Below, piece after piece: positions 3,001 through 30,675 of a DNA stretch of 64,000 bases. The translations under genes and the position numbers were made by a program. The stretch comes from Candidatus Poseidoniales archaeon (GTDB lineage: Archaea > Thermoplasmatota > Poseidoniia > Poseidoniales > Poseidoniaceae). The stretch spans positions 444 through 64,443 of the forward strand of contig JAYNJV010000006.1 of NCBI GenBank assembly GCA_038110525.1, given 5' to 3'. The notes beneath the pieces are model-generated. The model did no database searches and was not told the origin of the DNA. It saw nothing but the letters and a program-made list of their open reading frames with translations. Each line of letters begins with the position of its first letter. The first letter of the stretch is position 1.

Positions 3001-6000
3001 TGGGTCTGGACCTCGGCAAACGAGGTTGCCAAGTCGGTCGTAAACTTCGGAGGCAGGACCATCACAGAATCCATCACCATCTGTATCTGGATTGAGGGGG
3101 TCTGTTCCCGTATCGCCTTCACCGTTCCAAATGCCCGTATCGGTTTCGTTCAGGTCGGGTAAGCCGTCGTTATCGTCGTCGAGGTCTTCAGTAAGGCCTG
3201 GTGGGCCACGAATTGAATCCTCGTTGCCGTCGTAATCGATTGGTAGGGTGTCAGGGTCGCCATCGCCATCCGTATCTTCAAGCACCTCGATGGTGAAATC
3301 CCATGAGTACGAGTTTCCACCAGTATGGTTTGCAAAGACTGTGAAAGTGGTGTTACCAATGGTCTCTGTCGGCGTACCTGAAATCACACCTGTGGCAGGG
3401 TCAATCGACAAGCCAGCAGGCAAGCTTGGCATAATCTGGTAGGAGAGGCCACTTCCAACATAGTACGGCGGTACATTGGGTATCGCAGTGTTGTTGACTG
3501 CCACCACCGTAGCCGTTGGCCCGAATGGTGCTGGGTCTGGGCCTGCGGCGCAAATTCCTGGAATAGCGTTTGGACCGTCACAAATACCATCATCGTCGGT
3601 ATCGGGGTCAAGTGGGTCTGTACCTGTGTTGTTTTCATCGAGGTACATTCCCGTATCTGTCTCTACCGAGTCATTGTAGCCGTCACCATCATCATCTAAA
3701 TCCTCCTCAAGACCGGGCGCCGAGCGAATTGGGTCCTCTGAACCGTTGTAATCGCCTGGCAAGACATCGGGTAATCCGTCGCCGTCAAAGTCGTCGAGAA
3801 CGGTGAGATAGAATGTCCATTGTGCACTTACGCCGTTGCTTAGGTTTGCCCACATGGTGTAGGATGTGTTGGTCATCACCATGTCCGGTGTTCCCCAAAT
3901 TGAGCCGTTGCTCGCATCGAATTGAAGTGAAGTTGGAAGTGATGGTGAGAGCGAATAGGTCGCTCCTGACACGACGAAGAACGGGTCGATTTCTGTAACT
4001 GCAGTGTTGTTGACAAGAACGATCGGTGTGGAAATGACTGGAGGACCAGTGTTCGTATCTGGGCCTGCAATACACACACCGGGCACAGCGTTTGGACCGT
4101 CGCATATACCATCGTCATCGGTATCGGGGTCGAGCGGGTCAGTACCCGTATCGCTTTCATTGACATAGATGCCCGTATCTGTTTCATTGGTATCGGGCAA
4201 TCCATCTGCATCGTCATCTAAGTCCTCTTCAAGACCAGGCGCCGAGCGAATTGGGTCCTCTGAACCGTTGTAATCGCCTGGCAAGACATCGGGTAATCCG
4301 TCGCCGTCAAAGTCGTCGAGAACGGCCAGATAGAATGTCCATTGCATGCTCGCTCCGCCGCTCACATTCGCCCACATGGTGTAGGACGTGTTACCCATAA
4401 CCACGTCAGGTGTTCCCCAAATTGAGCCGTTGCTCGCATCGAATTGAAGTGAAGATGGCAGAGCGGGTGAAAGCCCGTAGGTCGCACCTGTCGGGGCATA
4501 GAATGGGTCGATTTCTGCAACTGCAGTGTTGTTGACAAGAACGATTGGTGTGGTTACAACAAGCGGTCCAAGGTTCGTATCTGGACCGGCGACACACACG
4601 CCTGTGATAGCATTTGGACCATCACAGACACCGTCGTCATCGGTATCGGGGTCGAGCGGGTCAGTACCTGTATCGCTTTCATTGACATAGGTGCCCGTAT
4701 CTGTTTCATTTGCATCTGGAAGACCGTCGCCGTCATCGTCATCGTCCGCAACCAGGCCAGACGTCGGCGGGTCGTTCGTATCATAGTCGGGCGGTAAGTC
4801 GTTTGGCAGTCCGTCACCGTCGTAATCGGCAAGGCTCTCGAGATTGAATGTGAATGTTTCAGTGGCTGAGCCATTGTGCGTTGCTGTCACTGTAAACGTG
4901 GTGTTGGCAAGGGTTCCGTTGACCGCCCCAGTAATTTCACCTGTAGCAGAATCCATGGATAGTCCTGAAGGTAAGGCTGGTGAAACCGTCCATGTGGTCG
5001 TACCGTTCCAAAACGGTGGATGGAAACCAATGGGGTCAATGGTCACGTTTTCTACAACCGTATGTGGATTGTCAGTATCAACCGTGAACCAAAGGTCAAG
5101 TGTGAAACTGTAATTGTTCTGATTGACGTAAACAGTGTATGTTTGGTTGGATGCATAGACTGAAGGGGTGCCGCTAATTGAGCCGCTCGTTAGGCTCATG
5201 CCGTCTGGAAGTTGTGGTTCAGTTTCCCATATTGCAGATTGCAAAGAGATCACCTGTATTTCTCCAGGTTGATGTGCCCACAATTCAACACCTGTGGTGG
5301 TTGATGAAGAGCCGGTATTGTGGGTTGCGGAGAAGTATAGGGTGTCGCCAACGAGAGCGGCCATGTATCGCCCCGGTTCGGTAGTGCGACTTCCTGGAGA
5401 GATGTCTGTTACTCGCCATGTGGAGTGGTTGGATGTATCGTGAGCCCACAATTCTGTGCCCTTGCTTCCATCATATGCATCAAAATAGATGGTATCGCCA
5501 ACAAGGATGCTCATCATTGCTCCAGGATTGCCGTTATTTGAGGAGCTGGCTATGTTCGCCACTTGCCAAGTAGAATGGTTTGAAGTATCGTGAGCCCACA
5601 ATTCTCGACCTGTGCTTGTATCATCAGCATCAAAATAGATGGTGTCGCCAACGACAATGGACATGTGTTGTCCAGGATTGCTGTCGCCCCAGGAGGTGCG
5701 GATGTCGGCCACTTGCCAAGTGGATTTGTTGGAGGTATCGTGAGCCCACAATTCTGTCCAGTTTCCATCATCAGCATCAAAATAGATGGTGTCGCCAACG
5801 ACAATGGACATGTATCTTCCAGGTGTGCTGGACGATGAACTGCTTTGGATGTCGGCCACTTGCCAAGTAGAATGGTTTGAAGTGTTATGAGCCCACAATT
5901 CTCGACCTGTGCTTCCATCAAATGCATCAAAATAGATGGTGTCACCAACGACAATGGACATGTATCTTCCAGGTGTGCTGGGGTCGGAACCGCTTCGGAT

Positions 6001-9000
6001 GTCGGCCACTTGCCAAGTAGAATGGTTTGAAGTGTTATGGGCCCACAATTCTTTACCTGTGCTTCCATCAACAGCATCAAAATAGATGGTGTCGCCAACA
6101 AGGATGCACATGTACGCCCCAGGAGCGCTACTACCAAGGCTGTAGATGTTCGTCACTTGCCAAGTGGAGTTGTTGGAGGTGTCGTGAGCCCACAATTCTG
6201 AACCTTGTCCCGGGGATGCATCAAAATAGATGGTGTCGCCAACGAGGATGTTGCACATGTATTGACTAGGTGTGCTGCTGCTTGAACCGCCGTCAAGGTT
6301 TGCCACTTGCCAAGTAGAATGGTTAGAAGTGTTATGGGCCCACAATTCTCGACCTGTGCTTCCATCAACAGCATCAAAATAGATGGTGTCGCCAACGACA
6401 ATGGACATGGGTCCTCCAGGTTCGCTGCTGCCTGAACCGCTTCGGATGTCGGCCACTTGCCAAGTAGAATGGTTTGAAGTGTTATGAGCCCACAATTCTG
6501 CACCATCTCCATCGGTTGCATCAAAATAGATGGAGTCGCCAACGACAATGGACATGTATTGTCCAGGAAGGCTATTGAGATACGAGGCGTAAATATTGGC
6601 CACTCGCCACGTCGAATCGTTGCCATAATCAACCCACTCCTCCATAGTGATATTTGCTGCATTTGTGAGGAAATATTCGAGTGAAATTGGTGTCATCGTC
6701 GCACCGAGTTCGAGGGCTGCACCATCGACTGAAGATGTGAGTGTTGCGAAGGGTGATGTCTTGAGCCAAATATCGACTTGGTAGGTCTCGTTGCTGATAT
6801 TTGCTGTGACTGTGTACGTTGTTCTGCTCGTCGTAACCGTTGGTGTACCGCTGATGGTGCACGTGCTGCTGTCAATGGACAGGCCGGACGGTAATGAAGG
6901 TGAAACAGTGCACGATAGTGCCCCGGTGACGTTGGTCATGCCGCTGCCCGAACCGCTCGCCGCACTGGCATTGTACTGGAAGGTGATGTTGGCCATGGCC
7001 TTACCGATGAGGAGTTCTGCACCTTCTTTACTCGGGAAAAGTAGCATTTCATCAACTCCAATCCAAACCTGTCCACGTAATGTTCCTTGGGATGTGTTGG
7101 CATACACCGTATAGGTCTGATTGGTTGAAAGTGCGGTCGGCGTTCCACTGATTGTACATGTTCCCTGTGCGAGTGTGAGGCCAGCGGGTAGGGAGGGTTG
7201 AACTGAGCAAGTCGCAGTCGACAGAGATGCTGGTGGCCCAGCTATCTTTCCGATATCTACGAATGCTGGACCTGAATTGGTTGTACCATCACCCATTTGT
7301 CCGCGATCTCCTTGCCCCCAACACCACATGGACCCATTTTCGAGCAGTGCACAAGCATGGTACCAACCAACCGAGAGTTCAACGGCTCGAACTGATCCGT
7401 GTGGCCATGGAATGAGTGTTGGTTCAAGGACATTCGAAGAAGTGGTCGAATATGCTGCGTCGGCATCACCCCAGCACGCTACTGAACCGTTGGAAAGAAT
7501 GACACAAAAGGTGGTATCTCCAGCGAAAAGTGATTTCGCAGAAAGATTACCTGGCATTGGGTTGGTAAAGCCTGCAATGCTTGTATTCGATGCCGAGGAC
7601 CCTACACCTCGCTCACCCTTCGGAGAATTTTCCCCCCAACAAGCGACAGACCCATTTTCATACAAGGCGCATACGGATCGGACTGTGCCTTCAATGGCAA
7701 TGATATTTCCATCGGGAAGGATGGCTTTCTTCGCTGTCGTGTAAGTCGTGGTATCTCCTTGACCGAGTTGGCTTTGGCTGTTCCTACCCCAACACATCAC
7801 ATCTCCATTCTCGAGCAATGCACATGTGGAATAGGCAGAAAGGGCCATATCAACCACTTTTGCACCTGAAGGTAACACATTGACTGGAGTGTATTCCCTC
7901 ATCGTGGTCGTGTTTCCGATACCCAGTTGTCGATCCGAATTATATCCAGTGCACAGGGCTGAACCATCGTCGAGGACCACGCATGCATGGTTATGGTCAG
8001 CATGAATGGATGCAACTGTTCGTCCATTCGGAAGCGGAACATGGGTTGGTGTAACAACGCTCGACGCTGTCGAACCTATGCCAAGTTGGCCATAGCCGTT
8101 CTCGCCCCAACAATACAGTGATGAATTCGCAAGAAGGGCACAACTGTGGTCTGCTGCGTACACCGGAACGGCAACTGCAGGACTGCCAGGTGGTAGGTCA
8201 ACCAATTCTGGAGAAAGATAATCTGTGCTGGTTGATGATGTGCCGATTTGCCCATCGGCGTTTTCGCCCCAACAAGCCACAGAACCTCCTGCTTTGACTG
8301 CACATGAATGGTAGTCGCCCGTTAATAAGGTTCTGAAATTGTTGTTGTAAGGCGTATCCCAGCCACCATCGCCTGCCTCGGCGCCCGTGGGTACACCAAA
8401 TGTGATCGGTTCGATGGTTTCGCCAATGTTAGTTTCCAAACCAGAAACACTTGGTGATAGCGGAAGGTAGTCGGTGACCAACCAGAACATCGAACTGTAG
8501 ATTGTGCCGCTGATGGTCGCTGTGAGGGTGAAATTTGTCATTGGTGTGACTGAGGTTGGGGTTCCGCTCACGGTGCAGTTTCCTTGATTGAGGCTTAAGC
8601 CCGTTGGCAAGGAAGGATAAATGCTACAGGAAGCGCCAGCGACAGCGTCAAAAGATACAACGCTGAGTTCTTCTGGAGAATAAGCATACATTTTGTTGTC
8701 GCTCGTCTTCTGATAAACAAACACATCATCCACAAAAGCCCAATACTGGCCAGGATTACTAAGAGCAAAACTTGTCTCGTTCGTGGAAATATCGTACATG
8801 AGTGTCGAGTCGTAATTGCTATCGAAATGATAGAAAAGTTGGTCTCGAGTAAATCCGTGGAACCAAGACGCTGAACGTCCGTTGTTGTATCCGTTGTCAA
8901 TCGAGTAGGTCGTGTTCTCTTGGGTGTCATGGACCCAAATTCGATAGTTGTCGTTGATGTCCTGTGCTCCTGATAATCCAATGAAATACAACTTCCCATT

Positions 9001-11172
9001 CCGCACCAGAATATCTGGGCCATCGTTGCTGATGAACCCGTTATCCCCAAAATTCGTATTGATATCTTTCACCATCCACGTTGCGTTTGAAGAAAGATTG
9101 TAGGCGTACAACTCCCTGTATGTGCGTGCTGAAAAGTACACCACATTGTCGACGACGACGGCTTCGTTGAGGTTGACCTGCAACCCAAGTGAAGAATTGA
9201 CTTGGTATGACGTGTTGGATGTGATGTTGTACGCCCACAGGCCAGTGTAACGAAACACGATGATATCATCTGAAACCATCTTGACTTGATCATCAAAGCC
9301 GTAAGTCGACGAGGACGTCGACCCGCCAGTAACATCGTGTAGCATACTGGTCTGGTTCGTAGCGATTGTGTGTTTGTAAAGGTCCCAGCGGTACGTGCCA
9401 AATTCCTGTGCCGTGAAATACACCGTGCCGTTGTGATGGATGAGGTTTTTCAAATTTGAAAAGGAAGTCGAGGGTGTCGTTGAATTCGATAAAAATTCAA
9501 GTTCAAAAGAGGTCCCATTGAATCGGTACAGCCCCTCACCTGGCCCATTGGTGTCCTCACCGTAGAGATAGAAATCGTCACCGACCTTCAGCGGTGATGG
9601 AGGGAACGACTTCGTTCCCGTGACTGGCCAACCAGTACCGCAGCAAGTGAAGGTTGGTAATTCAAAACCTGCACCACCAACTCTCCACGCCGTTCCGTTC
9701 GAAGTGTTGTATGCCCACAACTGGTCCACCAAAGAAGAAACATAGCTGTCGAATAAGAGGACGTCGTCAATGACGTACAAGAACGTATAGAATCCACCAG
9801 AATGCGTGAGTTCTTTCCACGTCGTTCCGTTGTTCAAATTATGCATGTACAAATCGTTGTTGTCGTTGAACATGATGACATCGTCATCAAACATCACGTC
9901 ATAGCCATCCAACTGGGATATTCTGTTGCCAAAACCCGAAGAGGAGTATGCCTCCGTGATGTTCCAATACGAACCGTTGCCGTAGATGGCCGAGGCGTCT
10001 TCGCCCTCAACGTACCCGAAGGTGATGGGATCCATAGCCGCGTTAAGAGGGAGTTTTGCCCCGTCAACGACCGACTGCCACAATTCAAAATCTACTTCGC
10101 CGGGAGCCACATTAAGAATGATGTTGGCGGTTGCTGAAAAAGCAACGCCATCCACGGTCGAATTTGCATACATCGTGTAGGTGCCACCGCTCATGATTTG
10201 AGTTGGTATGCCCGAAAGCACGCCTGATGCATTCACGCTCAAACCTGAAGGAAGTGTTGGGTCGACCTCGAAGGTCGCACCATCTGGAATAGATGTGGGT
10301 GCAAAGGTGAGGGAATCGTATTGCGTTCCATTGACATAATAGACAGTGCTTGAACCCGACCAAACGCCACCAGAAAAGGTGAAGCGGCGTGCTGAATCAA
10401 GAGGTACGGGGTCACTTGCGGTCGTGGTCAATTGGGGCGCTCCATCGTTATCACCGTCGTGACAGGCAAAATCGCCGTTCAAATTCTGATTTGAGGTTGA
10501 CGTTCCAAACCAGTTGAATGACGGCGTTCCGTTGCGGTCCATGTCATGGTCTTCAAGCACGTCCCAAGGCAAAATCATGGTCAACAAGTAATCATCATCT
10601 CCGCCAAATGAAGAGTCTGCAACCGATGAGTTCCAGTAATCGCTTGCTGGGGTAAGTTCGACCGATACGCTGTCTGCGGAATCGGTTGGGCTATCGGCAG
10701 TTGTTGTGACGGTGTTGTTGTATATCTTTAGAGAATCTGAACCTGAGCCATAGTATGAAACAAGGTGTTCGTAGGTGCTTTTGTTTCCATCGGTATCAAA
10801 CTCCATGCCCCACATGAACGATTGTAGACTTGTTCCTTGGCTGTTGGTAGGTGTTCCATCGAGACGAAGTTGAATAAACACAGAAGTCGCATTCGATGCT
10901 GTTTGTACGGCAGGGTACGATGCGTTTCCAACGATATCAAGAGCGTCGTTGTTCCCGTTGTCCCCCTGAACATCGGACATGACTTCATACCCGCAAGTCA
11001 TAGCAGAGAAGGCAAGTCCACTTGGTAGTGCAGTTGATTTCGCTGGCACATACTCTTCGTCGAGTGTTTCATACCACGGATTGAGGATGCTAAGGTATCC
11101 CACTTGAGCCATAAATATCATCATCAATGAAAACACAATTGCGTTTCTTGTTTTGACATATGCTTCGCTCAT
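1..11172 (-). CDS. Giant multidomain cell-surface protein (>3,724 aa, truncated by window edge): signal peptide, putative Ig (He_PIG-like) repeats, ELWxxDGT-like propellers, RCC1 repeats, thrombospondin type-3-like DxDxDG repeats, TM helix, K/A/E-rich cytoplasmic tail
   Basis: ATG at 11172 (MSEAYVKTRNAIVFSLMMIFMAQVGYL...). The same frame still reads sense at position 1 (...VLGKATTSEVKEEVKKGAET). No minus-strand ORF in the track uses this frame, which implies no internal stop. Motifs translated by hand: PSLPxGLSxxxxxxTISGTP (Ig), HSCALLANSSLYCWGENGYGQLG (RCC1), GRELWAHNTSN, many DxDxDG, hydrophobic GLCFLPLLFLLLLLLLVLLYRE near 1150-1210. Confidence 0.9.
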   Translation of the reverse strand, partial: MSEAYVKTRNAIVFSLMMIFMAQVGYLSILNPWYETLDEEYVPAKSTALPSGLAFSAMTCGYEVMSDVQGDNGNNDALDIVGNASYPAVQTASNATSVFIQLRLDGTPTNSQGTSLQSFMWGMEFDTDGNKSTYEHLVSYYGSGSDSLKIYNNTVTTTADSPTDSADSVSVELTPASDYWNSSVADSSFGGDDDYLLTMILPWDVLEDHDMDRNGTPSFNWFGTSTSNQNLNGDFACHDGDNDGAPQLTTTASDPVPLDSARRFTFSGGVWSGSSTVYYVNGTQYDSLTFAPTSIPDGATFEVDPTLPSGLSVNASGVLSGIPTQIMSGGTYTMYANSTVDGVAFSATANIILNVAPGEVDFELWQSVVDGAKLPLNAAMDPITFGYVEGEDASAIYGNGSYWNITEAYSSSGFGNRISQLDGYDVMFDDDVIMFNDNNDLYMHNLNNGTTWKELTHSGGFYTFLYVIDDVLLFDSYVSSLVDQLWAYNTSNGTAWRVGGAGFELPTFTCCGTGWPVTGTKSFPPSPLKVGDDFYLYGEDTNGPGEGLYRFNGTSFELEFLSNSTTPSTSFSNLKNLIHHNGTVYFTAQEFGTYRWDLYKHTIATNQTSMLHDVTGGSTSSSTYGFDDQVKMVSDDIIVFRYTGLWAYNITSNTSYQVNSSLGLQVNLNEAVVVDNVVYFSARTYRELYAYNLSSNATWMVKDINTNFGDNGFISNDGPDILVRNGKLYFIGLSGAQDINDNYRIWVHDTQENTTYSIDNGYNNGRSASWFHGFTRDQLFYHFDSNYDSTLMYDISTNETSFALSNPGQYWAFVDDVFVYQKTSDNKMYAYSPEELSVVSFDAVAGASCSIYPSLPTGLSLNQGNCTVSGTPTSVTPMTNFTLTATISGTIYSSMFWLVTDYLPLSPSVSGLETNIGETIEPITFGVPTGAEAGDGGWDTPYNNNFRTLLTGDYHSCAVKAGGSVACWGENADGQIGTSSTSTDYLSPELVDLPPGSPAVAVPVYAADHSCALLANSSLYCWGENGYGQLGIGSTASSVVTPTHVPLPNGRTVASIHADHNHACVVLDDGSALCTGYNSDRQLGIGNTTTMREYTPVNVLPSGAKVVDMALSAYSTCALLENGDVMCWGRNSQSQLGQGDTTTYTTAKKAILPDGNIIAIEGTVRSVCALYENGSVACWGENSPKGERGVGSSASNTSIAGFTNPMPGNLSAKSLFAGDTTFCVILSNGSVACWGDADAAYSTTSSNVLEPTLIPWPHGSVRAVELSVGWYHACALLENGSMWCWGQGDRGQMGDGTTNSGPAFVDIGKIAGPPASLSTATCSVQPSLPAGLTLAQGTCTISGTPTALSTNQTYTVYANTSQGTLRGQVWIGVDEMLLFPSKEGAELLIGKAMANITFQYNASAASGSGSGMTNVTGALSCTVSPSLPSGLSIDSSTCTISGTPTVTTSRTTYTVTANISNETYQVDIWLKTSPFATLTSSVDGAALELGATMTPISLEYFLTNAANITMEEWVDYGNDSTWRVANIYASYLNSLPGQYMSIVVGDSIYFDATDGDGAELWAHNTSNHSTWQVADIRSGSGSSEPGGPMSIVVGDTIYFDAVDGSTGRELWAHNTSNHSTWQVANLDGGSSSSTPSQYMCNILVGDTIYFDASPGQGSELWAHDTSNNSTWQVTNIYSLGSSAPGAYMCILVGDTIYFDAVDGSTGKELWAHNTSNHSTWQVADIRSGSDPSTPGRYMSIVVGDTIYFDAFDGSTGRELWAHNTSNHSTWQVADIQSSSSSSTPGRYMSIVVGDTIYFDADDGNWTELWAHDTSNKSTWQVADIRTSWGDSNPGQHMSIVVGDTIYFDADDTSTGRELWAHDTSNHSTWQVANIASSSNNGNPGAMMSILVGDTIYFDAYDGSKGTELWAHDTSNHSTWRVTDISPGSRTTEPGRYMAALVGDTLYFSATHNTGSSSTTTGVELWAHQPGEIQVISLQSAIWETEPQLPDGMSLTSGSISGTPSVYASNQTYTVYVNQNNYSFTLDLWFTVDTDNPHTVVENVTIDPIGFHPPFWNGTTTWTVSPALPSGLSMDSATGEITGAVNGTLANTTFTVTATHNGSATETFTFNLESLADYDGDGLPNDLPPDYDTNDPPTSGLVADDDDDGDGLPDANETDTGTYVNESDTGTDPLDPDTDDDGVCDGPNAITGVCVAGPDTNLGPLVVTTPIVLVNNTAVAEIDPFYAPTGATYGLSPALPSSLQFDASNGSIWGTPDVVMGNTSYTMWANVSGGASMQWTFYLAVLDDFDGDGLPDVLPGDYNGSEDPIRSAPGLEEDLDDDADGLPDTNETDTGIYVNESDTGTDPLDPDTDDDGICDGPNAVPGVCIAGPDTNTGPPVISTPIVLVNNTAVTEIDPFFVVSGATYSLSPSLPTSLQFDASNGSIWGTPDMVMTNTSYTMWANLSNGVSAQWTFYLTVLDDFDGDGLPDVLPGDYNGSEDPIRSAPGLEEDLDDDGDGYNDSVETDTGMYLDENNTGTDPLDPDTDDDGICDGPNAIPGICAAGPDPAPFGPTATVVAVNNTAIPNVPPYYVGSGLSYQIMPSLPAGLSIDPATGVISGTPTETIGNTTFTVFANHTGGNSYSWDFTIEVLEDTDGDGDPDTLPIDYDGNEDSIRGPPGLTEDLDDDNDGLPDLNETDTGIWNGEGDTGTDPLNPDTDGDGFCDGPASEVYDRLGNLVCRGPDPDPHDPTDPLDTDGDMYPDDDPDGEGGLEADDDDDNDGYPDISEDACNSDSKNATSIPEDMDGDAICDGDDLDMDGDGIDNLNETGLPIGTDPDNPDTDGDGVCDGPESPVTSNCTAGPDAFPLDPSASKDTDGDGKPDDLVPGVNSTSDPALIEDLDDDDDGWDDLDEIACGTDSLNETDIPVDLNGDGLCDVLDDDWDDDGIPNANETNTSIYVNETDTGTDPWNPDTDGDGYCDGSIGVMNGSEVVCVAGPDPYPNDPTQPVDTDGDGLPDELPDDYDGELIEDTDDDGDGVEDVDDLYPLNPGADTDTDGDGRPDEVRQDVNTDPSLIEDLFDDDAEDDGWSDLDEIACGTDPQDDTDEPGDIDEDGICDALDTEDNRDDLDGDGWSNVDELLCGTDEDDDSSVPKDSDLDGICNAFDPPILVYTNPNATRQYNTSDMWILLNESIVLTPFLDGILADTWEINGTLPEGLNFTGQARSGDGSIFGTPTELMNMTTYFITASNSLTGESISFMLNLSVVEDTDLDGLPDNDPDGPDGIIEGDLDDDNDGWPDTVEEQCETDSSDQSDTPADLVDDNNQCLENYVGTGDPSDEPFGYGLCFLPLLLLLLLLLLVLLYREREVLVGPEPEFTDAEPKFQSGQGTQSDPFVLKSPKPIKHGESVVSKELITFTNMSPNIKFPISDLGNEANRTRFKMIDERGSEEGVFEAHGDEEGTSSIRIMFDDSFENTREGGTFQGLLKIGLNSVYVMWEVEVKPDKEYLKELKKQEKEAEKQRKKEEAEAKKKAEADAKAKAEADAKADEEAKAKADAEAKAEEEAAAALLVAKKEEEEAEKKAKKEAEAAEKNEKKEAEKEAKAKADAEAKAKKEAEAAEKKAKEEAEKEAKAKADAEAKAKAEEEAAALLIAKKQEEEAEKEAKAKADAEAKAKAEKEEAEKEAKAKAEADAKAKAAAAKPATKEAKKEEEIERVKERAKSIDFKVLGKATTSEVKEEVKKGAET
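95..720 (-). repeat. Low-complexity Lys/Ala/Glu repeat (AEAKAKAEKEA-like) encoding a charged helical tail of the giant protein
   Basis: Repeated ggcttttgcctttgcttc / ttcagcatctgc units. The Ser/Ala/Phe-rich + strand ORFs here are its antisense shadow. Confidence 0.85.
3690..4740 (-). repeat. ~522-bp tandemly duplicated module (Ig domain + TSP3-like repeats) inside the giant ORF
   Basis: cgagcgaattgggtcctctgaaccgttgtaatcgcctggcaagacatcgggtaatccgtcgccgtcaaagtcgtcgagaacgg occurs at 3721 and 4243. ctgcagtgttgttgacaagaac recurs at the same 522-bp offset. Confidence 0.9.
5270..6620 (-). repeat. Tandem 147-150 bp coding repeats (ELWAH beta-propeller blades, ELWxxDGT-like)
   Basis: cccacaattc (ELWAH on minus strand) at about 5277, 5445, 5595, 5745, 5892, 6042, 6189, 6339 and 6489, each with gcatcaaaatagatgg (IYFDA) nearby. 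Confidence 0.9.
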
Positions 11173-11283
11173 GTAATTGGTATGAATTCTATGTTCATAT
11201 ATATTGAACCTATCATAACTTGCAAACATATGTTTAATAACTTTGAAATAGCACCCAAATTCCTATCATGAACGGGTGACAGT

Positions 11284-22790: not shown

Positions 22791-22969
22791 CGCGACCGAC
22801 CCTGCCTCGTGCTCCCCCTTGATGAATGCGGCGTTTTGATTATCTGTGCGAGGTGGTTCCAATCCGAATCGTTTCGATGGTTATCGTTTCGTATAAATGG
22901 GTGGTCTGAAACTCGTTTCGTTCAGGCCAAATCAAGCAAATTTGCCTTTAGGCAATGTATTTTGCTGGA

Positions 22970-23239
22970 TTATTCTTCTTCAGCGTCTTGAATGAGTCCA
23001 CCTTGTGCGGTGATTTGTTCTCGAAAGTGGTTGAGAACATGTGGTTCTTTGCTTGTTCTCGGGTCAATTTCTGATACGCTGCTCAACTCGATTTTACGTC
23101 GTGGAGCACGGTGGCGTGAACCGAGAGTGGAATATACTCGGCCTCGAGCGTCGTCTTCATTTTCAGCGACGACGTCGAATGTGAATCCTTGTCGCATCTT
23201 TCCAAATGGTGCAATTCCTTGAACGCGAAATGCCTTCAT
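22970..23239 (-). CDS. rpl18a: 50S ribosomal protein L18Ae (LX/eL20)
   Basis: MKAFRVQG...F..DV.A.NE..A...VYSTLGSRH...RRKI; synteny with pfdA and ftsY. Confidence 0.9.
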   Translation of the reverse strand: MKAFRVQGIAPFGKMRQGFTFDVVAENEDDARGRVYSTLGSRHRAPRRKIELSSVSEIDPRTSKEPHVLNHFREQITAQGGLIQDAEEE

Positions 23240-23338
23240 GTTTTGCCGCGACTTTGCTTTTCTCTTTAAATTGAATGGTGATTTCAATGACGCCAATCAA
23301 AGCACAATTTAGAAGCAAAGGACTGTTTCACCGTGTGT

Positions 23339-26300
23339 ATGGGGAAGGTAGGCATCATTTGTTTTCTGCTCATCGCTTCCCTTGGGCAAGGTCTTGATGT
23401 AGGTATTGAAGAGATGCTTGCACCTGAACATGGAGAGTTTTTCATCCGTGCCCACAATGACGTTTGGACCTACGAAGAATGGTCGACCCTTTCTTCGTTT
23501 GATATCACTGCTTTGCGTAGTGTAACGCAGTCTGAACTTCTCGTCTTTGGTCAACAAGATGTCATCGAAAAAGCGGGTTACGCACCTTTGCTCGCCCCTC
23601 CTGCTGATTTCAAGGGCGACCTTACCCTTTGGATTGAAGGTGAGGCATCAACTCTTCGAGTGGTGTTTGAGCCTCGGCTACCAAGTGAAGTCAAGACGGG
23701 TATTGTCAATCACATCATCAAAGAAGCCGGTCATGTTTCGTTCCAAACGGTCGCTTATCCGACATCCATTGATATCCAGTCCGAACGACTCTTGTTTTCG
23801 CCCGAATATGTCCTCTCAATTCCAGGCATCCTTTGGATTGAACCAGTCATGCGAACTGAAGGAAGAAATGCTGTTGCGTCATCATTGCTCCAACACGGGC
23901 ACACCACAGAAACACCTGCGTGGGATTTCGGGTTAAACGGTGAATCTGTCATCATCGGGCTTGCCGATAGTGGTATCGACTTCGACCACGCTTGTTTTCG
24001 ACAATACGGCTCGGCGGCTGAATCGAATGAAACATCAGAATTTTCAAACAACACTGCTGTAGGCGTGTTCTCTTCAACACATCGAAAGATTGTGTTGTAC
24101 AACAACTCGATTGATGGCTACGATTCGAGTGGCCACCTCGATTACCGTCACGGCACGCATGTCGCAGGTACGCTTGCTTGCTATGATGTCTTTCACAATC
24201 AACATATGAGTCCTCCAAGCAACGGTAGTTCGCTTGCTTACGCCAGTAAAATTGTGTTTCAAGATGTCGTATCAAGTGAAGGTTGGGTCATCCCGGATGT
24301 TGAAGATTTACTGTTTGAAGCCAACCAACATGGTGCCATGATCCACTCCGATTCGTGGGGTGATGACACGACAGAATATACGGCAAGGACAGCGATGTTC
24401 GATGCTTACGCACGACAAGTTCCTTGGTCCCTTTCCTTTATCGCTCCTGGAAACAACGGAGGGGATGTGCTTGAGCCTGCCAATGGCCGTAATGTTGCTT
24501 CCATTGGAGCCTCGGTCAAGTCTTCGACCCAAGAAGTGTGGACGGGTTCTGCACGTGGACCACTTGAGGATGGACGAGATGGGATCTTTGTTCTCGCTCC
24601 TGGTTCAAACATCATTTCAGCCAAGGGGGACGGGGATGATACGACCAATAACGCAGACCTACGTCCTTCTTCAGGCACGAGTATGTCCACCCCTGCGGCA
24701 GCAGGCACCGCTGCGATCATCCAGCAAATGTATGAACAGGGTTGGATTTCAAACACCATCGACAGGTCAAATTTTGTTCTCGTCGATGACCTACAGGCTC
24801 CTTGGGTGAGTATCCCCTCAAATGCAAGTTCGGGCGTATATCTTTCCGACGGATTCACACCTTCAGGAACGCTACTACGGGCCACTCTTGCCCTCTCGAC
24901 AACACCCTACGATGTTGCCCTTCGAAACGGGGGCGTGGGCTCAGGATTGCTACACAACCCTGTCGAGGGATGGGGCGTGCTCAACTTGAGTGCACTGGTC
25001 GATTTCCAAGACCTCCGACTCCAACTTGAAACAGGAAATGCGACTCCAGCATACAACATTTGGTTCCATGATAGTTTCCAACTTGAATCGTCTACGCCAG
25101 CAGAGTGGATGGCGAGTGTTGATGAGCCAATGTCACACGCTTGGAACGGTTCAGGAGCAATCGGTCCTTTCCTTGAAACGGGGCAACGATTCTCGTCGCG
25201 CCTTATCCCAATTGAACACCAAGATGTTCAGATTCGACTTGCATTTCCTTCAAAGCCGGAGCCTGAGATAGCTGACGATTTACTTCTTGTGGCCCATTTA
25301 TCGGACGGAACCACCGTCGTACGGGATATGGTCGACTTGAGTGGAATGCCAATTCTTTACGATTCAAACGTGGTGAACCTTTCGAATCAAAGTCTGCTAC
25401 CAAACACAAACGAAACAACGCAGGGCCTATTCATTCCAGCCTCAATGCTCGAAAATATCACCCATATCGATGTGGAAATACTTGCTCGTTATGTTGCACC
25501 AGGAAACGATGAATTAGGTGTTGGTATCGATGGTAATCGAATCGGGTTTTCCATCGTTGCATCAGGCGTTTTACCCCATGAAGACAACGATGGTGATGGT
25601 GTTCAGAACATCGATGATGCGTGTCCAGAAACCACACTCGGTGAGGTTGTTGACGGAAAAGGGTGCAGTGAAAGTCAGAATGACGATGATAACGATGGGG
25701 TTGCGAATCTTTTTGACCTCTGCAATGAAGAAGATGCAACAGGATTTGACCAAAACTTCGATGGTTGTATCGATGACTCGGATGACGATGGTTTTCTAGA
25801 CCCCGAGGATGCTTGTCCATTTGAAGAGACATTTGGATGGAAAGTTGATGGATTCGGGTGTATTCCTGTGGACCAACCTCCTCTTCTTCTGTTTGAAGGT
25901 GTTGAAAATTTAACCGAACTGTGGCGGGGAACCATTTCACTACAGTGGAATGTATCGGATTTTGAAAACGATTCTTATGAGACGGGAGCGATCATCCACT
26001 CGGTTGAGAATCCAAACTTCGTTATTTCAGCCTGTTTTTTCTCGAACAATATCACCGCTTCATACATTTGCAAGTGGAACAACCCTGACGACCTGCCCCC
26101 GTATTCTTTGCAAGACATGACGTTTAACTTGCGAATCTATGCTCAGACGCACAACAACTCACCTTTCGCAAGTACGCAATACATCGATTATTTGTACCCA
26201 CAAAACTTCTCCGTGTATTGGGAAAATCCCCTTGAAGAGCCGAATGATTCAACAAGAGACCAACAAGGTGTTTCGCAACGAATTTGGATGTGGAGTCTGT

Positions 26301-26452
26301 TTGGTATTGCCGTAGGATTTGCGGTCGCTTTCCAACTTTCAAAACGCCTTCAAGACGAGGATAATGAAGGAGGGGTTTTAGACCCATTTACTCAAAATTT
26401 GAGAGTTGAGCCTGAAAATCATCAAAAGCGTGCACTGCATGAAGATGAGTGA
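23339..26452 (+). CDS. Secreted S8 (subtilisin-like) serine peptidase with TSP3-like repeats and C-terminal TM anchor
   Basis: Catalytic triad motifs ADSGID, HGTHVAGT, GTSMSTP; oxyanion PGNNG; DxDxDG...DAC repeats; C-terminal TM. Confidence 0.92.
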   Translation: MGKVGIICFLLIASLGQGLDVGIEEMLAPEHGEFFIRAHNDVWTYEEWSTLSSFDITALRSVTQSELLVFGQQDVIEKAGYAPLLAPPADFKGDLTLWIEGEASTLRVVFEPRLPSEVKTGIVNHIIKEAGHVSFQTVAYPTSIDIQSERLLFSPEYVLSIPGILWIEPVMRTEGRNAVASSLLQHGHTTETPAWDFGLNGESVIIGLADSGIDFDHACFRQYGSAAESNETSEFSNNTAVGVFSSTHRKIVLYNNSIDGYDSSGHLDYRHGTHVAGTLACYDVFHNQHMSPPSNGSSLAYASKIVFQDVVSSEGWVIPDVEDLLFEANQHGAMIHSDSWGDDTTEYTARTAMFDAYARQVPWSLSFIAPGNNGGDVLEPANGRNVASIGASVKSSTQEVWTGSARGPLEDGRDGIFVLAPGSNIISAKGDGDDTTNNADLRPSSGTSMSTPAAAGTAAIIQQMYEQGWISNTIDRSNFVLVDDLQAPWVSIPSNASSGVYLSDGFTPSGTLLRATLALSTTPYDVALRNGGVGSGLLHNPVEGWGVLNLSALVDFQDLRLQLETGNATPAYNIWFHDSFQLESSTPAEWMASVDEPMSHAWNGSGAIGPFLETGQRFSSRLIPIEHQDVQIRLAFPSKPEPEIADDLLLVAHLSDGTTVVRDMVDLSGMPILYDSNVVNLSNQSLLPNTNETTQGLFIPASMLENITHIDVEILARYVAPGNDELGVGIDGNRIGFSIVASGVLPHEDNDGDGVQNIDDACPETTLGEVVDGKGCSESQNDDDNDGVANLFDLCNEEDATGFDQNFDGCIDDSDDDGFLDPEDACPFEETFGWKVDGFGCIPVDQPPLLLFEGVENLTELWRGTISLQWNVSDFENDSYETGAIIHSVENPNFVISACFFSNNITASYICKWNNPDDLPPYSLQDMTFNLRIYAQTHNNSPFASTQYIDYLYPQNFSVYWENPLEEPNDSTRDQQGVSQRIWMWSLFGIAVGFAVAFQLSKRLQDEDNEGGVLDPFTQNLRVEPENHQKRALHEDE

Positions 26453-26533
26453 TTTTTTGAGCCTATTTTTCAAGGTGAAACTTGAAAATAAATGAGGTTG
26501 TCGCGTACACATTAGCAACCATAGGTGAAAAGC

Positions 26534-27538
26534 ATGGGAGAACGACTATACGTAGGAATCGACTTAGGAACATATCAATCAACAGTATCTTCAAGCGCGG
26601 GTAAAACCCTCACAATAGAAACTGTTGTCGGACGACCAAAAGACCCTGTAGCACGAAACTTCCTCGGCAAGGATGTCTTGTTTGGTGATGAAGCACTCAA
26701 GAACAAGCTTGCATGTAATCTCTACCGCCCAATGGCGGCAGGTGTAGCACAAGATGACGAAGCAAACCTCGCTGCAGCAAAGGCCTTCGTTTCACACCTT
26801 ATCGAATCGGTTGACCCTGAAGATTACGACGAAGTTCTTGGTGTCATTTGCTCACCGAGCCACGTTTCATTCACTGATAAGTCAAACCTCGTTGCAACCC
26901 TACGAGGACAAGTCAACGCTATCATGGTCGTCACAGAGCCATTCGCAACTGGCTATGGAATTGACCAACACATGGGTTCAATCGTCGTTGATATCGGAGC
27001 TGGAACAACTGATATTGCTCGATTGTATGGAACCTTCCCAAGCGACGAAGACCAAGTCACCATCACCGAAGCAGGTGACTGGTTGGACCTCCAACTCCAA
27101 ACCCTCATCCAAAAGAAATACACTGGCGCTCAAGTCACAAAGGACATGGTTCGAAAGTGGAAGGAACAATCCTCCTATGTAGGTGGAGAAGTCCAGGAAG
27201 TCCTCGTCTCACTCTCAGTCGAAGGTAAGAGTCAGAAAGTCGACATTGGCGACCTCATTAAAGAAGCATGTGAAAGCATTATACCAAAGGTTGCAAATGC
27301 CATTAAGCGAATCGTTGCTGGAGCAGACCCTGAGTACCAACCTGTGCTTCGAAACAACATCATTCTCTCCGGCGGCGGCTCACTCATCGTAGGACTCGCT
27401 GACCGAATTGCCCGAGAAATCGCTGATATCGGTGATGTGTCGGTCTCTTGTGTAGAAGACCCAATTCACTCTGTTGCAAACGGTGCACTCAAACTCGCAG
27501 GTGACATGCCTGACGATATGTACACCTCAATCAACTGA
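26534..27538 (+). CDS. MamK-like actin-family ATPase
   Basis: GIDLGT (phosphate 1), EPFATGYG (connect 1), DIGAGTTDI (phosphate 2), LSGGGS (adenosine). MamK-type segments VVG.PKD, P..EDQVT...AG, PEYQ...NI, CV.DP...GAL.LA. SD-like AGGTGA upstream. Confidence 0.88.
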   Translation: MGERLYVGIDLGTYQSTVSSSAGKTLTIETVVGRPKDPVARNFLGKDVLFGDEALKNKLACNLYRPMAAGVAQDDEANLAAAKAFVSHLIESVDPEDYDEVLGVICSPSHVSFTDKSNLVATLRGQVNAIMVVTEPFATGYGIDQHMGSIVVDIGAGTTDIARLYGTFPSDEDQVTITEAGDWLDLQLQTLIQKKYTGAQVTKDMVRKWKEQSSYVGGEVQEVLVSLSVEGKSQKVDIGDLIKEACESIIPKVANAIKRIVAGADPEYQPVLRNNIILSGGGSLIVGLADRIAREIADIGDVSVSCVEDPIHSVANGALKLAGDMPDDMYTSIN

Positions 27539-27628
27539 ATCGGTTGTGGAAGTTAGGCCGAATTTTCGGCATATCGCGGCTTGAACATTGGGAAAGTTCA
27601 AGAGTGGTGGTGCATCGATAGGCTGTAT

Positions 27629-28888
27629 ATGACAATCGGCGCAGCCCCGAATGACAACGGACATGACCTTGCGTCAGCCTCCCAAGAACGAGCTGCTCTC
27701 GAAGGAATGCTCAAGGGATATCCTGTTGATCAGTTGGTTGAAGAAATCCTCGTTGCGTGGGATGAACTTGCACATCGAAACGAGGAACTGGTCGATGCAA
27801 AACAGCGATTGCGTGTTGTTGAACTCGATTTGGCTGACCGAAGAGACAGTGTTGCACCAGAACTCATACGCCTTCAAGAAATCGAAAAGCAACTTCAAGA
27901 TGCTGATGCACAAATCGTTCACCTCAAGCGATTGTTGGATGATTCCCAGGAGGAGTTGAAGGCTCAACAATCTTCAATGACACTTGAAGAGCGTGAAGCA
28001 CTTGCCAAAGAAGCGGCTGACCTTCGTGAATTGACCCAGCAACAAGACGAGATTATCGGAGAAATGGAAGGTCGAATGATGCAAATGGTGGGGGCTCTCG
28101 AACGAGCTGCAAATGCTGGGCTTACTTCAGTTACAGCCGATGATGTTCGGGCTATGAAATCCCAACTTGATGAAAGGGGGAGAGAACTTGATGCAGAACG
28201 TGCAGCAAATGAAGCATTGGAAGAGGAGCGCCAGCGTCTAAGAGATATTGCTGACCGTATGAGAGGGCTTCTCGACGCACGTGATAGGCGTCTTGCCGAA
28301 CTTGAAGAGCAATTGGAACGGGTCATGCAAGGACCTCGTTCAGTATCTGCAGAACACGATTATTTGGTGGAGCAAATCGAAGAACTCAAGCGTAGGTTGT
28401 TGGAGCGAAATCGAGAGTATGAATCATTACGAAGGCGAGAACGCCGATTGCACAACGATGTATTTGAGCGGGATGAACGCCTCCAACAAATGACACTCAC
28501 ACTCACCGATTTAGAATCTGCACTCCAAGACCGTACCGCAGAACTACGCGAACTTGAAGACCAACGTATGGTCATTGCCAATGAACTCGAATCGGCGAAG
28601 CGTGGAGAACGAACCAGAGAAGTTGTTGGACGAGCCTTTGCAGATTCGCTCACCCTCGTTCGTGGTCATGAAAGCCGTGAGTTGAAGCGAAATATGTACG
28701 CTGAAACACCTGATAAAGAACGAACGATCAAGGCTCCAAAAACCGATGATATGGCCAAACTCGCAGGTGGTGACACCATCGAACTTGAGAAGGACGAAAA
28801 GGACCTCAAGAAAGGGAAAGAAGTCGATACGGATGCTATTCCGTCGCCTGGTGGAACCGGCGAACCGGCGGTTTTCGAAGAAGATTGA
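27629..28888 (+). CDS. Long coiled-coil protein
   Basis: About 330 aa of E/R/L/Q-rich heptad sequence with few Pro/Gly and a disordered acidic C-tail; no Walker motifs. Confidence 0.8.
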   Translation: MTIGAAPNDNGHDLASASQERAALEGMLKGYPVDQLVEEILVAWDELAHRNEELVDAKQRLRVVELDLADRRDSVAPELIRLQEIEKQLQDADAQIVHLKRLLDDSQEELKAQQSSMTLEEREALAKEAADLRELTQQQDEIIGEMEGRMMQMVGALERAANAGLTSVTADDVRAMKSQLDERGRELDAERAANEALEEERQRLRDIADRMRGLLDARDRRLAELEEQLERVMQGPRSVSAEHDYLVEQIEELKRRLLERNREYESLRRRERRLHNDVFERDERLQQMTLTLTDLESALQDRTAELRELEDQRMVIANELESAKRGERTREVVGRAFADSLTLVRGHESRELKRNMYAETPDKERTIKAPKTDDMAKLAGGDTIELEKDEKDLKKGKEVDTDAIPSPGGTGEPAVFEED

Positions 28889-29698
28889 TCACTGGCAAAC
28901 CGAAAGAATCGGGGATAATGCCGCCTGAAGTTCATCAACTGAACTTGTTTCTTCGGCAAGCGTTCCTGTTACGATAAAATCCGCACCTGCTTCGATGGCA
29001 TTGATTGCATCCACTTTGGTTCGAATGCCGCCTCCGACGATGATGACAAGGTTACTGGCCTCTCTTGCTGCACGGATGAGACCTTGTGAAACAGGTTTGC
29101 TTGCGCCACTGCCTGCTTCGAGATAGAGGGTGGTAAAACCATACATTTCTGCAGCAGTAGCGTATTCAACGATGCGTTGCTCTTCGCCCTCATGAACGAG
29201 GTGTGCTCGGCCAACTTCACCTACTTTTCCTCCGGGGGCACAAACGATGTATCCCATCGAAATTGGTTCAATTCCAAATGTGCGAATGAGTGGGGCCCCC
29301 GCTGCTTGCTCGCCAATGAGAAATCGCGAATCACTCGAATTCATGAGCATCATGAACGTGATGCCATCTGCTGATTTGGCAAGGGCATTCGCACCACTTG
29401 GAAACAACACAACAGGCACATTCCATTTTTGTTCATCACCATCTGGCTTTTGACTTTCTGCAAAAATACGTAGTTCAAACGACTCTTGAATGGCTGCACA
29501 GGTAGCTTCCACTTTCTCAAAGGGAGTATCGGTTGAACCGCCGACAAAAATCATCGAACTTCCGAGGTCGACGGCGACCATGGCTCGCTGTGCTGCGATT
29601 TCGGGCTCTTGCTTGTCTGGGTCGATGAGAAGAATATGACGAGTCCCGGGTGAGGGGGACGCCATCCAATCCGCTATCGAAGCGTTTTCAAGATTCAT
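28889..29698 (-). CDS. Geranylgeranylglyceryl phosphate synthase (PcrB family)
   Basis: LIDPDKQ, FVGGST, PVVLFP, YLEAGSGA, VGGGIR, GADFIVTGT. Confidence 0.92.
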   Translation of the reverse strand: MNLENASIADWMASPSPGTRHILLIDPDKQEPEIAAQRAMVAVDLGSSMIFVGGSTDTPFEKVEATCAAIQESFELRIFAESQKPDGDEQKWNVPVVLFPSGANALAKSADGITFMMLMNSSDSRFLIGEQAAGAPLIRTFGIEPISMGYIVCAPGGKVGEVGRAHLVHEGEEQRIVEYATAAEMYGFTTLYLEAGSGASKPVSQGLIRAAREASNLVIIVGGGIRTKVDAINAIEAGADFIVTGTLAEETSSVDELQAALSPILSVCQ

Positions 29699-29827
29699 CG
29701 CACTCAAACATAGGCTGATGAAACCACGACATAGGCGTTGCGATGTTGGTTGGTTTTGTTTGCCGGTCGTTTGAGAATGTTGAAGGGGTAGTAAAATTTA
29801 TATAGTAGTGTATTTATTACACTGCCG

Positions 29828-30349
29828 ATGTACGCTAAAATGAAGAAAATATTCAACAAAAAGATGATGCCTTGGCCGAAGACGAGTTCTATGCCATATA
29901 TTCAACAATTTGTGAACCAAATATGCGAAGAATACGGTATGCAGAACATTGAAGTCAAATTTTATCCAAAATGGTTCATAGAGCAGTATTCGACAAAGGC
30001 CGTTGGAATGGCTTGGCCCATTGGATATTCCGCCGAGGATTCGATAGGTGAAGTGTGGTTTTGCACAGAATATTTCGGGTATCCTTGTGCTTCGTTTAGA
30101 CCAAAAAAACCTGTGAAAGAAGCGAGTGAAATTCAAAAAATCAGAGTAATAATCCACGAATTTGCACATCATGTTGCTTGGAAAACATACGGATATGACA
30201 TCAAAGCACATGGAAAAGAATTCAGAAAAATCAATAGATCCATCGAATCAAAGTTCGGATTTTACACCATTCCATTCTTTTATTCTATCATCAAATTCCC
30301 ACACATTTGGTTTAAACAAATGAAAAATAGTGGGGAGGTGATACAATGA
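29828..30349 (+). CDS. SprT-like/zincin metalloprotease domain protein (AT-rich)
   Basis: VIIHEFAHH (HExxH) followed by AHGKEFRKI (HG..F third-ligand motif). Confidence 0.7.
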   Translation: MYAKMKKIFNKKMMPWPKTSSMPYIQQFVNQICEEYGMQNIEVKFYPKWFIEQYSTKAVGMAWPIGYSAEDSIGEVWFCTEYFGYPCASFRPKKPVKEASEIQKIRVIIHEFAHHVAWKTYGYDIKAHGKEFRKINRSIESKFGFYTIPFFYSIIKFPHIWFKQMKNSGEVIQ

Positions 30350-30675
30350 AAAATAATGAAAATACATGGAATGAAAAAGAAATGCCGTGCAAAAATTGCA
30401 TAAATGGAAAGATGAGGGTGTGGAATCCTAAAAAGAAAATGGCAATACAATCCCCCTGTGTCAAGTGTTTTGGAACAACGACGGTAACAAAAAATGTCCC
30501 GAAATACTGCCAGTATGGAGATTGTGAGTCCGAGCCTTCTCACCAATGTGAGTCTTTCTTTTGTGATGAAGCTTGGGTGTGTTCGAAGCATTGGAAACAT
30601 GAGGAAATCGGATACGGTCAACATGGCCATGTGTGTGAAACGTGTTTTGATGAAATTGGTTCCGGTGGGCATTGA
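30346..30675 (+). CDS. Cys-rich zinc-finger protein
   Basis: CKNC...CVKC and CQYGDC...C...C...CSKH...CETC; ATGA overlap with the upstream gene; GGAGGTG SD. Confidence 0.7.
   Translation: MKNNENTWNEKEMPCKNCINGKMRVWNPKKKMAIQSPCVKCFGTTTVTKNVPKYCQYGDCESEPSHQCESFFCDEAWVCSKHWKHEEIGYGQHGHVCETCFDEIGSGGH

Follow-up and report, generated by a model that had tools for sequence, protein, structure and literature searches.

What might an actin that resembles the magnetosome protein MamK be doing in an archaeon of Marine Group II? The question is raised by a 64,000-nucleotide stretch of contig JAYNJV010000006.1 (the window), from the Candidatus Poseidoniales assembly GCA_038110525.1, in which a forward-strand gene at 26534..27538 (stop codon included) encodes a 334-residue MamK-like actin-fold ATPase, referred to here as actin A. 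For this protein the family, the fold, the catalytic residues, the conservation, the synteny and the co-loss with the C-terminal two thirds of a neighbouring helical rod protein are documented below, and with moderate confidence we read the two proteins as a polymerizing filament pair that takes part in positioning or scaffolding, the C-terminal part of the rod protein providing the coupling.

That the actin-fold gene is real, as the original prediction held, follows from the agreement of the open reading frame (26525..27538, forward strand), the family scores and the predicted structure, to which a match in the PDB and the position in phylogenetic trees can be added. Translation likely starts at ATG 26534 and not at GTG 26525, since the Shine-Dalgarno-like GGTGA (26524..26528, forward strand) precedes this ATG by 5 nt, the alternative GTG lies inside GGTGA, and the orthologues agree: all 17 start M-[GSAT]-[EDG]-R-L-Y, and by eye most of the 17 regions in front of them carry GGTGA or GGTGx at the corresponding position. 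Of five MamK-type motif strings that had been listed for the protein, three are present literally (VVGRPKD, residues 31-37; EPFATGYGID, 135-144; DIGAGTTDI...EDQVT...AG, 153-181), while the other two have the right letters with other spacer lengths and read PEYQPVLRNNIILSGGGSLIVGL and CVEDPIHSVANGALKLA in the translation. Close homologues carry the names Candidatus Poseidoniales, Poseidoniaceae or Thalassarchaeaceae, and their public annotation is 'rod shape-determining protein MreB'.

This label does not survive a comparison of family models. Among the NCBIfam models, MamK (NF040964) gives the highest score with actin A, 352.9 bits at a curated cut-off of 400, followed by BeeR (NF053558) with 210.6 bits at a cut-off of 530, the MreB models PRK13927 (82.9 versus 293) and TIGR00904 (64.9 versus 365.75), and salactin (NF053533) with 37.0 bits versus 400, none of these cut-offs being reached. 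In Pfam the best match is MreB_Mbl with 82.9 bits, followed by Actin with 53, and no MamK model is among the matches, which accounts for the public MreB label. The Pfam model of salactin (PF25229) exceeds its cut-off (31.5 versus 27.1), yet remains below MreB_Mbl. By the NCBIfam scores, salactin, which the original prediction had mentioned as MamK-related, is much more distant from actin A than MamK is (37 versus 353 bits). Weak matches to HSP70, EutJ and FtsA reach 16-19 bits, and ParM is not among the matches listed in the family model scan. A sequence search of the PDB gives the same ranking, with MamK (5jyg and 5ljv) at E 3.6e-70 over residues 3-330 and a single one-residue indel, BeeR (8r2n) at E 1.6e-38 and the best MreB (1jce) at E 5.4e-12; crenactin does not appear among the PDB hits listed for either sequence or structure.

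The predicted structure points in the same direction. The AlphaFold2 model of actin A, built from a 46-row alignment, has a mean predicted local distance difference test score of 92.4 and a predicted template modelling score (pTM) of 0.89, and its best structural match is a subunit of the MamK filament (5ljv_A), with template modelling (TM) scores of 0.93/0.96, a root mean square deviation of 1.5 Å and a sequence identity of 36-37% to MamK. BeeR follows with a TM score of 0.89, MreB with about 0.80 and a non-polymerizing MamK mutant with 0.76-0.85. The first strand begins at residue 4 of the model, which leaves no N-terminal extension. Mutation of the MamK ATPase residues E143 and D161 has been reported to freeze the filaments (PMC5059902), and these residues align with E135 and D153 of actin A, the former being invariant and the latter at least 90% conserved among 18 orthologues.

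To place actin A among its relatives, a library of 1.84 billion representatives was used, in which 1266 relatives pass a threshold of E ≤ 0.001 and 132 one of E ≤ 1e-30. A quick tree of 115 rows, with representatives matching fewer than 300 query positions left out, and a careful tree of 54 rows drawn from it together with three bacterial MreB sequences as outgroup covered MamK-like, BeeR-like and MreB proteins, without named salactin, crenactin or ParM sequences; the clades were labelled by the NCBIfam scores of ten representatives and by the 463-bit match of one of them, P0160, to PDB MamK. The careful tree unites actin A (8 rows, support 100/100) with a second Poseidoniales actin, actin B (4 rows, 100/100), at a support of 100/99, and the Poseidoniales proteins form a 27-row clade (99/98) with KSB1-type proteins and other Thermoplasmatota. 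The magnetosome MamK clade, seven rows around P0160, is separate (99/95) and contains no Poseidoniales rows, and the BeeR-like clade is basal and also separate (100/97), so that the Poseidoniales actins and magnetosome MamK both fall inside a wider MamK-like group that lies above the BeeR-like proteins. The outgroup consists of the three MreB rows, whose branch measures 1.8 changes per column, and MreB is a long-branch outgroup in both trees; the prediction that actin A is MamK-like rather than MreB-like, and would not group within MreB, is therefore borne out in trees of this composition. These clades make actin A part of a diverged offshoot of the MamK-like family in the broad sense, and this offshoot was duplicated at or before the base of the Poseidoniales.

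The closest relatives of the Poseidoniales A and B actins are N-terminally extended proteins of 523-1232 residues, with a support of 91 in the quick tree and an unstarred 93/84 in the careful one and an identity of 43-46% to the Poseidoniales actins. The two named members (P0125 and P0130) belong to candidate division KSB1, thus the group is bacterial where named and differs from actin A in its long extension. In proteins P0123-P0137 the N-terminal segment is, by eye, helical; a long low-complexity stretch of acidic or proline-rich sequence follows, and the MamK-like domain stands at the C-terminus. Homology between these extensions and the rod protein was considered and rejected, the best BLAST E value being 0.9. 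With the NCBIfam MamK model, P0160 scores 508 bits, the KSB1-type P0126 405.6 bits and four proteins of other Thermoplasmatota 424-436 bits.

The wider family is broadly distributed. A genome scan seeded with one MamK-like representative matched at least 600 stretches, of which at least 438 encode a relative, and the best 80 loci belong to Acidobacteriota, Binatia and similar groups. Three bacterial genomes with a MamK-like gene also carry a true MreB (497-519 bits), which indicates that the two are distinct families. In a sample of 201 genomes of the phylum the MamK model matched 33, seven of them Thermoplasmatota outside the Poseidoniales, and four of these seven exceed the cut-off. In Thermoplasmatota family f19 (loci L035 and L036) the MamK-like gene stands, by eye, among chemotaxis-looking genes of CheC and CheD type, a context unlike that of the Poseidoniales. 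At three of the seven other Thermoplasmatota loci (L030, L031 and L032) a conserved charged protein of about 425-443 residues is encoded directly 3' of the MamK-like gene, and its homology to the rod protein was likewise rejected (hhalign probability 0.2%).

In the window, the gene directly 3' of actin A encodes the rod protein (27629..28888, forward strand), which is 419 residues long, almost wholly alpha-helical and without a Pfam family. Its ATG at 27629 is preferred over TTG 27581 because the orthologues start MT[IL]G. The predicted structure contains helices at residues 14-28, 33-116, 119-162, 170-233 and 239-359 followed by a disordered tail, and its low pTM of 0.23 is expected for a rod. 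Conservation is found in an N-terminal module (residues ~15-160) and in a block at 226-300, which is about 90% conserved, and the linker varies in length; furthermore, the acidic C-terminal tail holds an invariant PGG, a pattern that suggests a short docking motif. Pfam assigns no DNA-binding family, and the best PDB profile has an E value of 0.26. The structural look-alikes in the Atlas are generic coiled coils, among them crescentin at 0.92, which is taken as a lead only, and the JGI name 'chromosome segregation ATPase' derives from weak matches to SMC coiled coils only. The family seems to be confined to the order, since none of 165 Thermoplasmatota genomes outside the Poseidoniales was matched at E ≤ 1e-6, and among the best 120 of 1402 hits all those with an organism name are Poseidoniales or Poseidonia sp.

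The two genes keep company over long distances. In each of 16 distant loci, drawn from three families (16 of 16), actin A has an S8 protease gene on its 5' side and the rod gene on its 3' side, and a convergent PcrB gene comes next in 15. Identity to the window proteins in these loci is 64-84% for actin A and 43-69% for the rod protein, compared with 45-59% for PcrB and 33-42% for the S8 protease.

How general is this arrangement in the order? With the protein as query (E ≤ 1e-20), actin was matched in 98 of 151 sampled Poseidoniales genomes, including 41 of the 58 of high quality, hence it is not universal. Matches were found in all 74 genomes of family f1 in addition to the window's own genome, in both genomes of f2 and in 21 of the 74 of f3, and nearly all matching genomes have two, actins A and B. 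Six genera gave no match (g12, 0/10; g13, 0/4; g14, 0/12; g15, 0/7; g17, 0/9; g22, 0/3). Among the actin-less genomes listed, which measure 1.3-1.6 Mb, several exceed 90% completeness and one consists of a single contig. In genus g21 only one genome gave a match (1/7); this match is 80% identical, typical of f1, lies 436 bases from the start of its contig and may be mis-binned. A link to motility was examined and rejected because archaellin (PF01917) and actin disagree in five genera: actin occurs without an archaellin match in g10 (2 genomes), g11 (3) and g19 (6), and archaellin without actin in g17 (8 of 9 genomes with archaellin) and g22 (3/3).

Two genomes deserve a separate mention. In the single-contig genome G003 a third MamK-like copy (C1:1175447-1176441) is split into two adjacent frames that cover model positions 1-148 and 150-331, and may be a pseudogene. 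Genome G004 contains two full neighbourhoods of S8 protease, actin, rod and PcrB genes (contigs C24 and C4; loci L019 and L027), the actins of which are 75% and 64% identical to that of the window; given its contamination of 6%, this bin may represent two organisms.

A further connection between actin and rod protein comes from the genomes in which actin is missing. A profile search matched the rod family in 125 of the 151 genomes, and the forms were tallied by hand from the rows. Of the 98 genomes with actin, 96 have the long form, either whole or as a fragment cut off by a contig end beside the actin gene, and the two exceptions are assemblies of 180 and 300 contigs; none of the 53 genomes without actin has the long form. 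Instead, 29 of the 53 actin-less genomes, and the doubtful g21 genome, have an open reading frame (ORF) of 141-196 residues that matches only rod positions ~5-165. In all six loci fetched (five by tblastn, the sixth by coordinates) the short ORF is convergent with PcrB and thus occupies the position of the long gene, with neither actin nor S8 protease beside it. At L133-L138 (genomes G027, G023, G045, G081, G087 and G025) the product is a helical protein of 146-161 residues homologous to the first ~160 residues of the rod. In five actin-less genomes no orthologue of the S8 protease was found, the best partial match reaching 53 bits, and a Zn-ribbon protein that accompanies actin B (see below) was likewise present in 0 of 5. 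By parsimony, these distributions suggest the loss of actin and the truncation of the rod protein within one family.

Actin B has a neighbourhood of its own. It is 341 residues long, lies on contig C1 of the same genome (225619-226611; L002 1489-2514), is 47% identical to actin A and scores 362.3 bits with the NCBIfam MamK model. A 374-residue Zn-ribbon protein is encoded 5' of actin B in 13 of 13 loci (L002 260-1384 in the own genome), and in 8 of 13 loci the gene of a membrane protein without a Pfam family, which by eye reads as a Zn-ribbon protein, follows 3' on the other strand. The original prediction had described the surroundings of the window gene, and this account needs to be extended, since it overlooked the rod gene directly 3', the second paralogue and the absence of actin from part of the order.

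The flanking members of the locus are more difficult to connect with the actin. The S8 subtilase (23333..26452, forward strand; Pfam Peptidase_S8) is 1039 residues long and hydrophobic both at its N-terminus and in a C-terminal segment, and its membership in an actin and rod module is uncertain. The geranylgeranylglyceryl phosphate synthase of the PcrB family (28889..29707, reverse strand), convergent with the rod gene, serves as a synteny anchor and is probably functionally unrelated to both proteins. Further away, the reverse strand at 1-11229 holds a giant open frame of more than 3743 residues that runs off the start of the window.

Both the actin A and the rod gene are preceded by an element of the form GTGAA-s-s-TT-s-AAG, which reads GAAACTTGAA at 26477..26486, about 50 nt 5' of the actin A start, and GAAAGTTCAA at 27592..27601, about 33 nt 5' of the rod start (both forward strand). 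By eye, 11 of the 18 regions in front of orthologous actin genes contain the exact core GAAVSTTSAA, and for the rod gene the core is exact in 13 of 18 and differs at no more than one position in 17 of 18. Actin B is preceded by a similar CTTCATAA-type element. A strict 13-mer version with one mismatch allowed has no match in the window, and a looser core occurs 7 times versus 3.3 expected. Related 6-mers such as TCAAAG, TTTCAA and TTGAAG are over-represented in front of many genes in the window (TCAAAG in 7 of 40 upstream regions versus 1.2 expected), and the elements are probably core promoter elements. Just 5' of the rod gene, an inverted repeat CTTGAAC-N9-GTTCAAG spans 27581-27603, of which only the second arm is conserved elsewhere.

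How, then, might the two proteins work? Actin A would most likely bind and hydrolyse ATP and assemble into filaments of MamK type, and it would probably act together with the rod protein encoded directly 3'. The N-terminal ~150 residues of the rod, which persist in genomes that lack actin, may have a role that is independent of actin and may bind some other cell component, while the C-terminal ~260 residues, with the 226-300 block and the PGG-containing acidic tail, occur only alongside actin and could dock on the filament. In those lineages of Marine Group II that have larger genomes, the pair would thus make up an internal system for positioning or scaffolding, and actin B with its Zn-ribbon partner may run in parallel. 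Cell division is probably independent of actin A, because the genome has three genes of the tubulin/FtsZ family (contigs C5, C56 and C7; 146.5, 141.8 and 43.2 bits to Pfam Tubulin).

Known actin systems offer partial parallels. The likeness to MamK of Magnetospirillum (5ljv, 5jyg) is collinear over the full length, with the ATPase residues kept and a TM score of 0.93, although the host of actin A is an archaeon without detected magnetosome genes and the neighbouring rod protein matches no known family. The nearest functional analogy is found in Desulfovibrio magneticus RS-1, where MamK is reported to work with coiled-coil proteins, and MamK/Mad28 together with the coiled-coil Mad20, 23, 25 and 26 organizes an intracellular structure (PMC12748827); the cargo here is not a magnetosome, and the likeness of the rod to the Mad proteins is one of description and not of sequence comparison. 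Salactin of Halobacterium is another archaeal actin for which MamK has been reported as the closest subfamily, and it has a long, charged and disordered N-terminal tail (PMC10746226); no such tail is present in actin A. BeeR, the second-best family for actin A (210.6 bits, TM 0.89), is described as a three-stranded tubular actin with an N-terminal extension of 30-50 residues (PMC11929497), which actin A also lacks.

A further archaeal precedent belongs to a different actin family than actin A: crenactin is regulated by the arcadins, small partner proteins encoded in its neighbourhood.

Several points weigh against a filament pair of actin A and the rod protein. The MamK score remains under the NCBIfam cut-off (353 versus 400), and MamK A278 aligns with a proline, P270, in actin A, a position at which the A278D substitution yields a non-polymerizing MamK according to the title of PDB entry 5ljw. 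Furthermore, the co-loss took place in genome-reduced lineages (~1.3-1.6 Mb) that lost many genes, and related genomes are not independent, which means that the co-occurrence counts overstate independence; for both reasons the co-loss is suggestive and not proof. Nor does it single out the rod protein, because the S8 protease and the actin B module were lost too. Finally, if the upstream elements are promoters, the actin A and rod genes have separate ones and no operon is established, and as similar motifs precede many genes, the element gives weak support for specific co-regulation.

Some of these points would equally fit a rod protein that is conserved as a neighbour but performs an unrelated task, the actin forming filaments with partners encoded elsewhere or with none, and this is the alternative that deserves the most attention, even if we consider it rather unlikely. 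It would agree with the separate promoter-like element in front of each gene, with the survival of the N-terminal rod module in genomes that have no actin, and with a locus order that is generally stable, as PcrB and the S8 protease are conserved neighbours as well. What it leaves unexplained is the distribution of the long rod form (96/98 versus 0/53 genomes) and why precisely the best-conserved block and the conserved tail are missing from the truncated form.

Somewhat less probable still is a DNA segregation machine of the ParM, AlfA or salactin kind, in which the rod protein would serve as DNA adaptor. A two-gene layout of actin and adaptor is typical of ParMRC and AlfAB, and salactin has reportedly been implicated in DNA partitioning, a role named in the original prediction; the segregation label given to the rod protein by JGI would also fit, weak as its SMC coiled-coil matches are. 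This proposal meets several difficulties: positions 22800-30400 of the window contain no centromere-like repeat array, only two- or three-copy families of chance-like character, the rod protein has neither a DNA-binding domain nor a Pfam family, and for actin A no match to a ParM model is listed and salactin reaches only 37 bits. The hallmarks of a ParMRC-type system (a ParM match, a DNA-binding adaptor and a centromere array) were thus not found.

A cell-shape determinant of MreB type, as implied by the public annotation, is improbable. The source annotations carry the MreB name, MreB_Mbl is the best Pfam hit, and helical rod proteins such as crescentin shape cells, to which the look-alike in the Atlas adds its lead; however, the MreB models stay far under their cut-offs, MreB is a long-branch outgroup in both trees, MamK-like proteins and true MreB coexist in the same three bacterial genomes, and archaea generally lack the peptidoglycan machinery that MreB guides. 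None of mreC, mreD, rodA and pbp2 was found among the 12 window ORFs scanned, no search aimed at them having been made genome-wide. A role in shape by a mechanism other than that of MreB may nevertheless be considered.

A non-polymerizing enzyme or chaperone-like ATPase of the ASKHA type, to which the weak HSP70, EutJ and FtsA matches could be taken to point, is very improbable, as these matches lie at 16-19 bits versus 353 for MamK, the model fits the filament conformer of MamK best, and the very high conservation would be typical of polymer-forming proteins. A true magnetosome MamK, which would make the host a cryptic magnetotactic archaeon and is favoured only by MamK being the best-scoring family, can be dismissed almost entirely, since the score is under the cut-off, the magnetosome clade is separate (99/95), MamP, MamI and MamQ are all without a match over cut-off in the own genome, and MamK-like genes are widespread in bacteria that are not named magnetotactic, as the best 80 loci illustrate. 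In this genome (1.91 Mb in 85 contigs, 89% complete) the genome-wide search covered MamP, MamI and MamQ: MamP gave a partial domain match of 22 bits, MamI none in a search without positive control, and MamQ a match of 58 bits versus a cut-off of 250, sub-cut-off MamQ matches also occurring in 6 of 14 control genomes. As no mam gene was found among the 12 window ORFs either, the original description of an archaeon without detectable magnetosome genes stands, and on the sequence evidence actin A appears to be unconnected with magnetosomes.

That actin A is uncharacterized, as had been predicted, agrees with the searchable literature, in which we found no paper that ties Marine Group II or Poseidoniales to MreB, MamK or actin; supplementary salactin trees and Marine Group II gene tables lay outside the search and may include actin A, and the papers that contain both sets of terms concern, in the parts that could be consulted, Binatota, Bdellovibrionota or tree rooting. 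New here are actin B with its Zn-ribbon neighbour, the fixed locus order, the patchy distribution, the truncation of the rod protein, the lack of a link to the archaellum and the extended nearest relatives.

To conclude, a polymerizing pair of actin A and the rod protein is the reading that we favour. A broader picture, which we put forward tentatively and regard as a good deal less certain, would be a bacterial-type actin cytoskeleton of two filaments, actin A with a rod adaptor and actin B with a Zn-ribbon adaptor, which might organize an as yet unseen intracellular or envelope-linked structure, and whose complete disappearance, accompanied by a truncated adaptor, might reflect a cell-biological simplification in streamlined genera of the Thalassarchaeaceae. 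Almost nothing is known, to our knowledge, about the cell biology of Marine Group II, and a conserved bacterial-type actin with an order-specific partner is a concrete target for heterologous expression, while the genera that naturally lack actin allow cell size, shape and organization to be compared. In addition, the findings correct the widespread database label 'rod shape-determining protein MreB', and they indicate that the MamK-like family is for the most part unconnected with magnetosomes.

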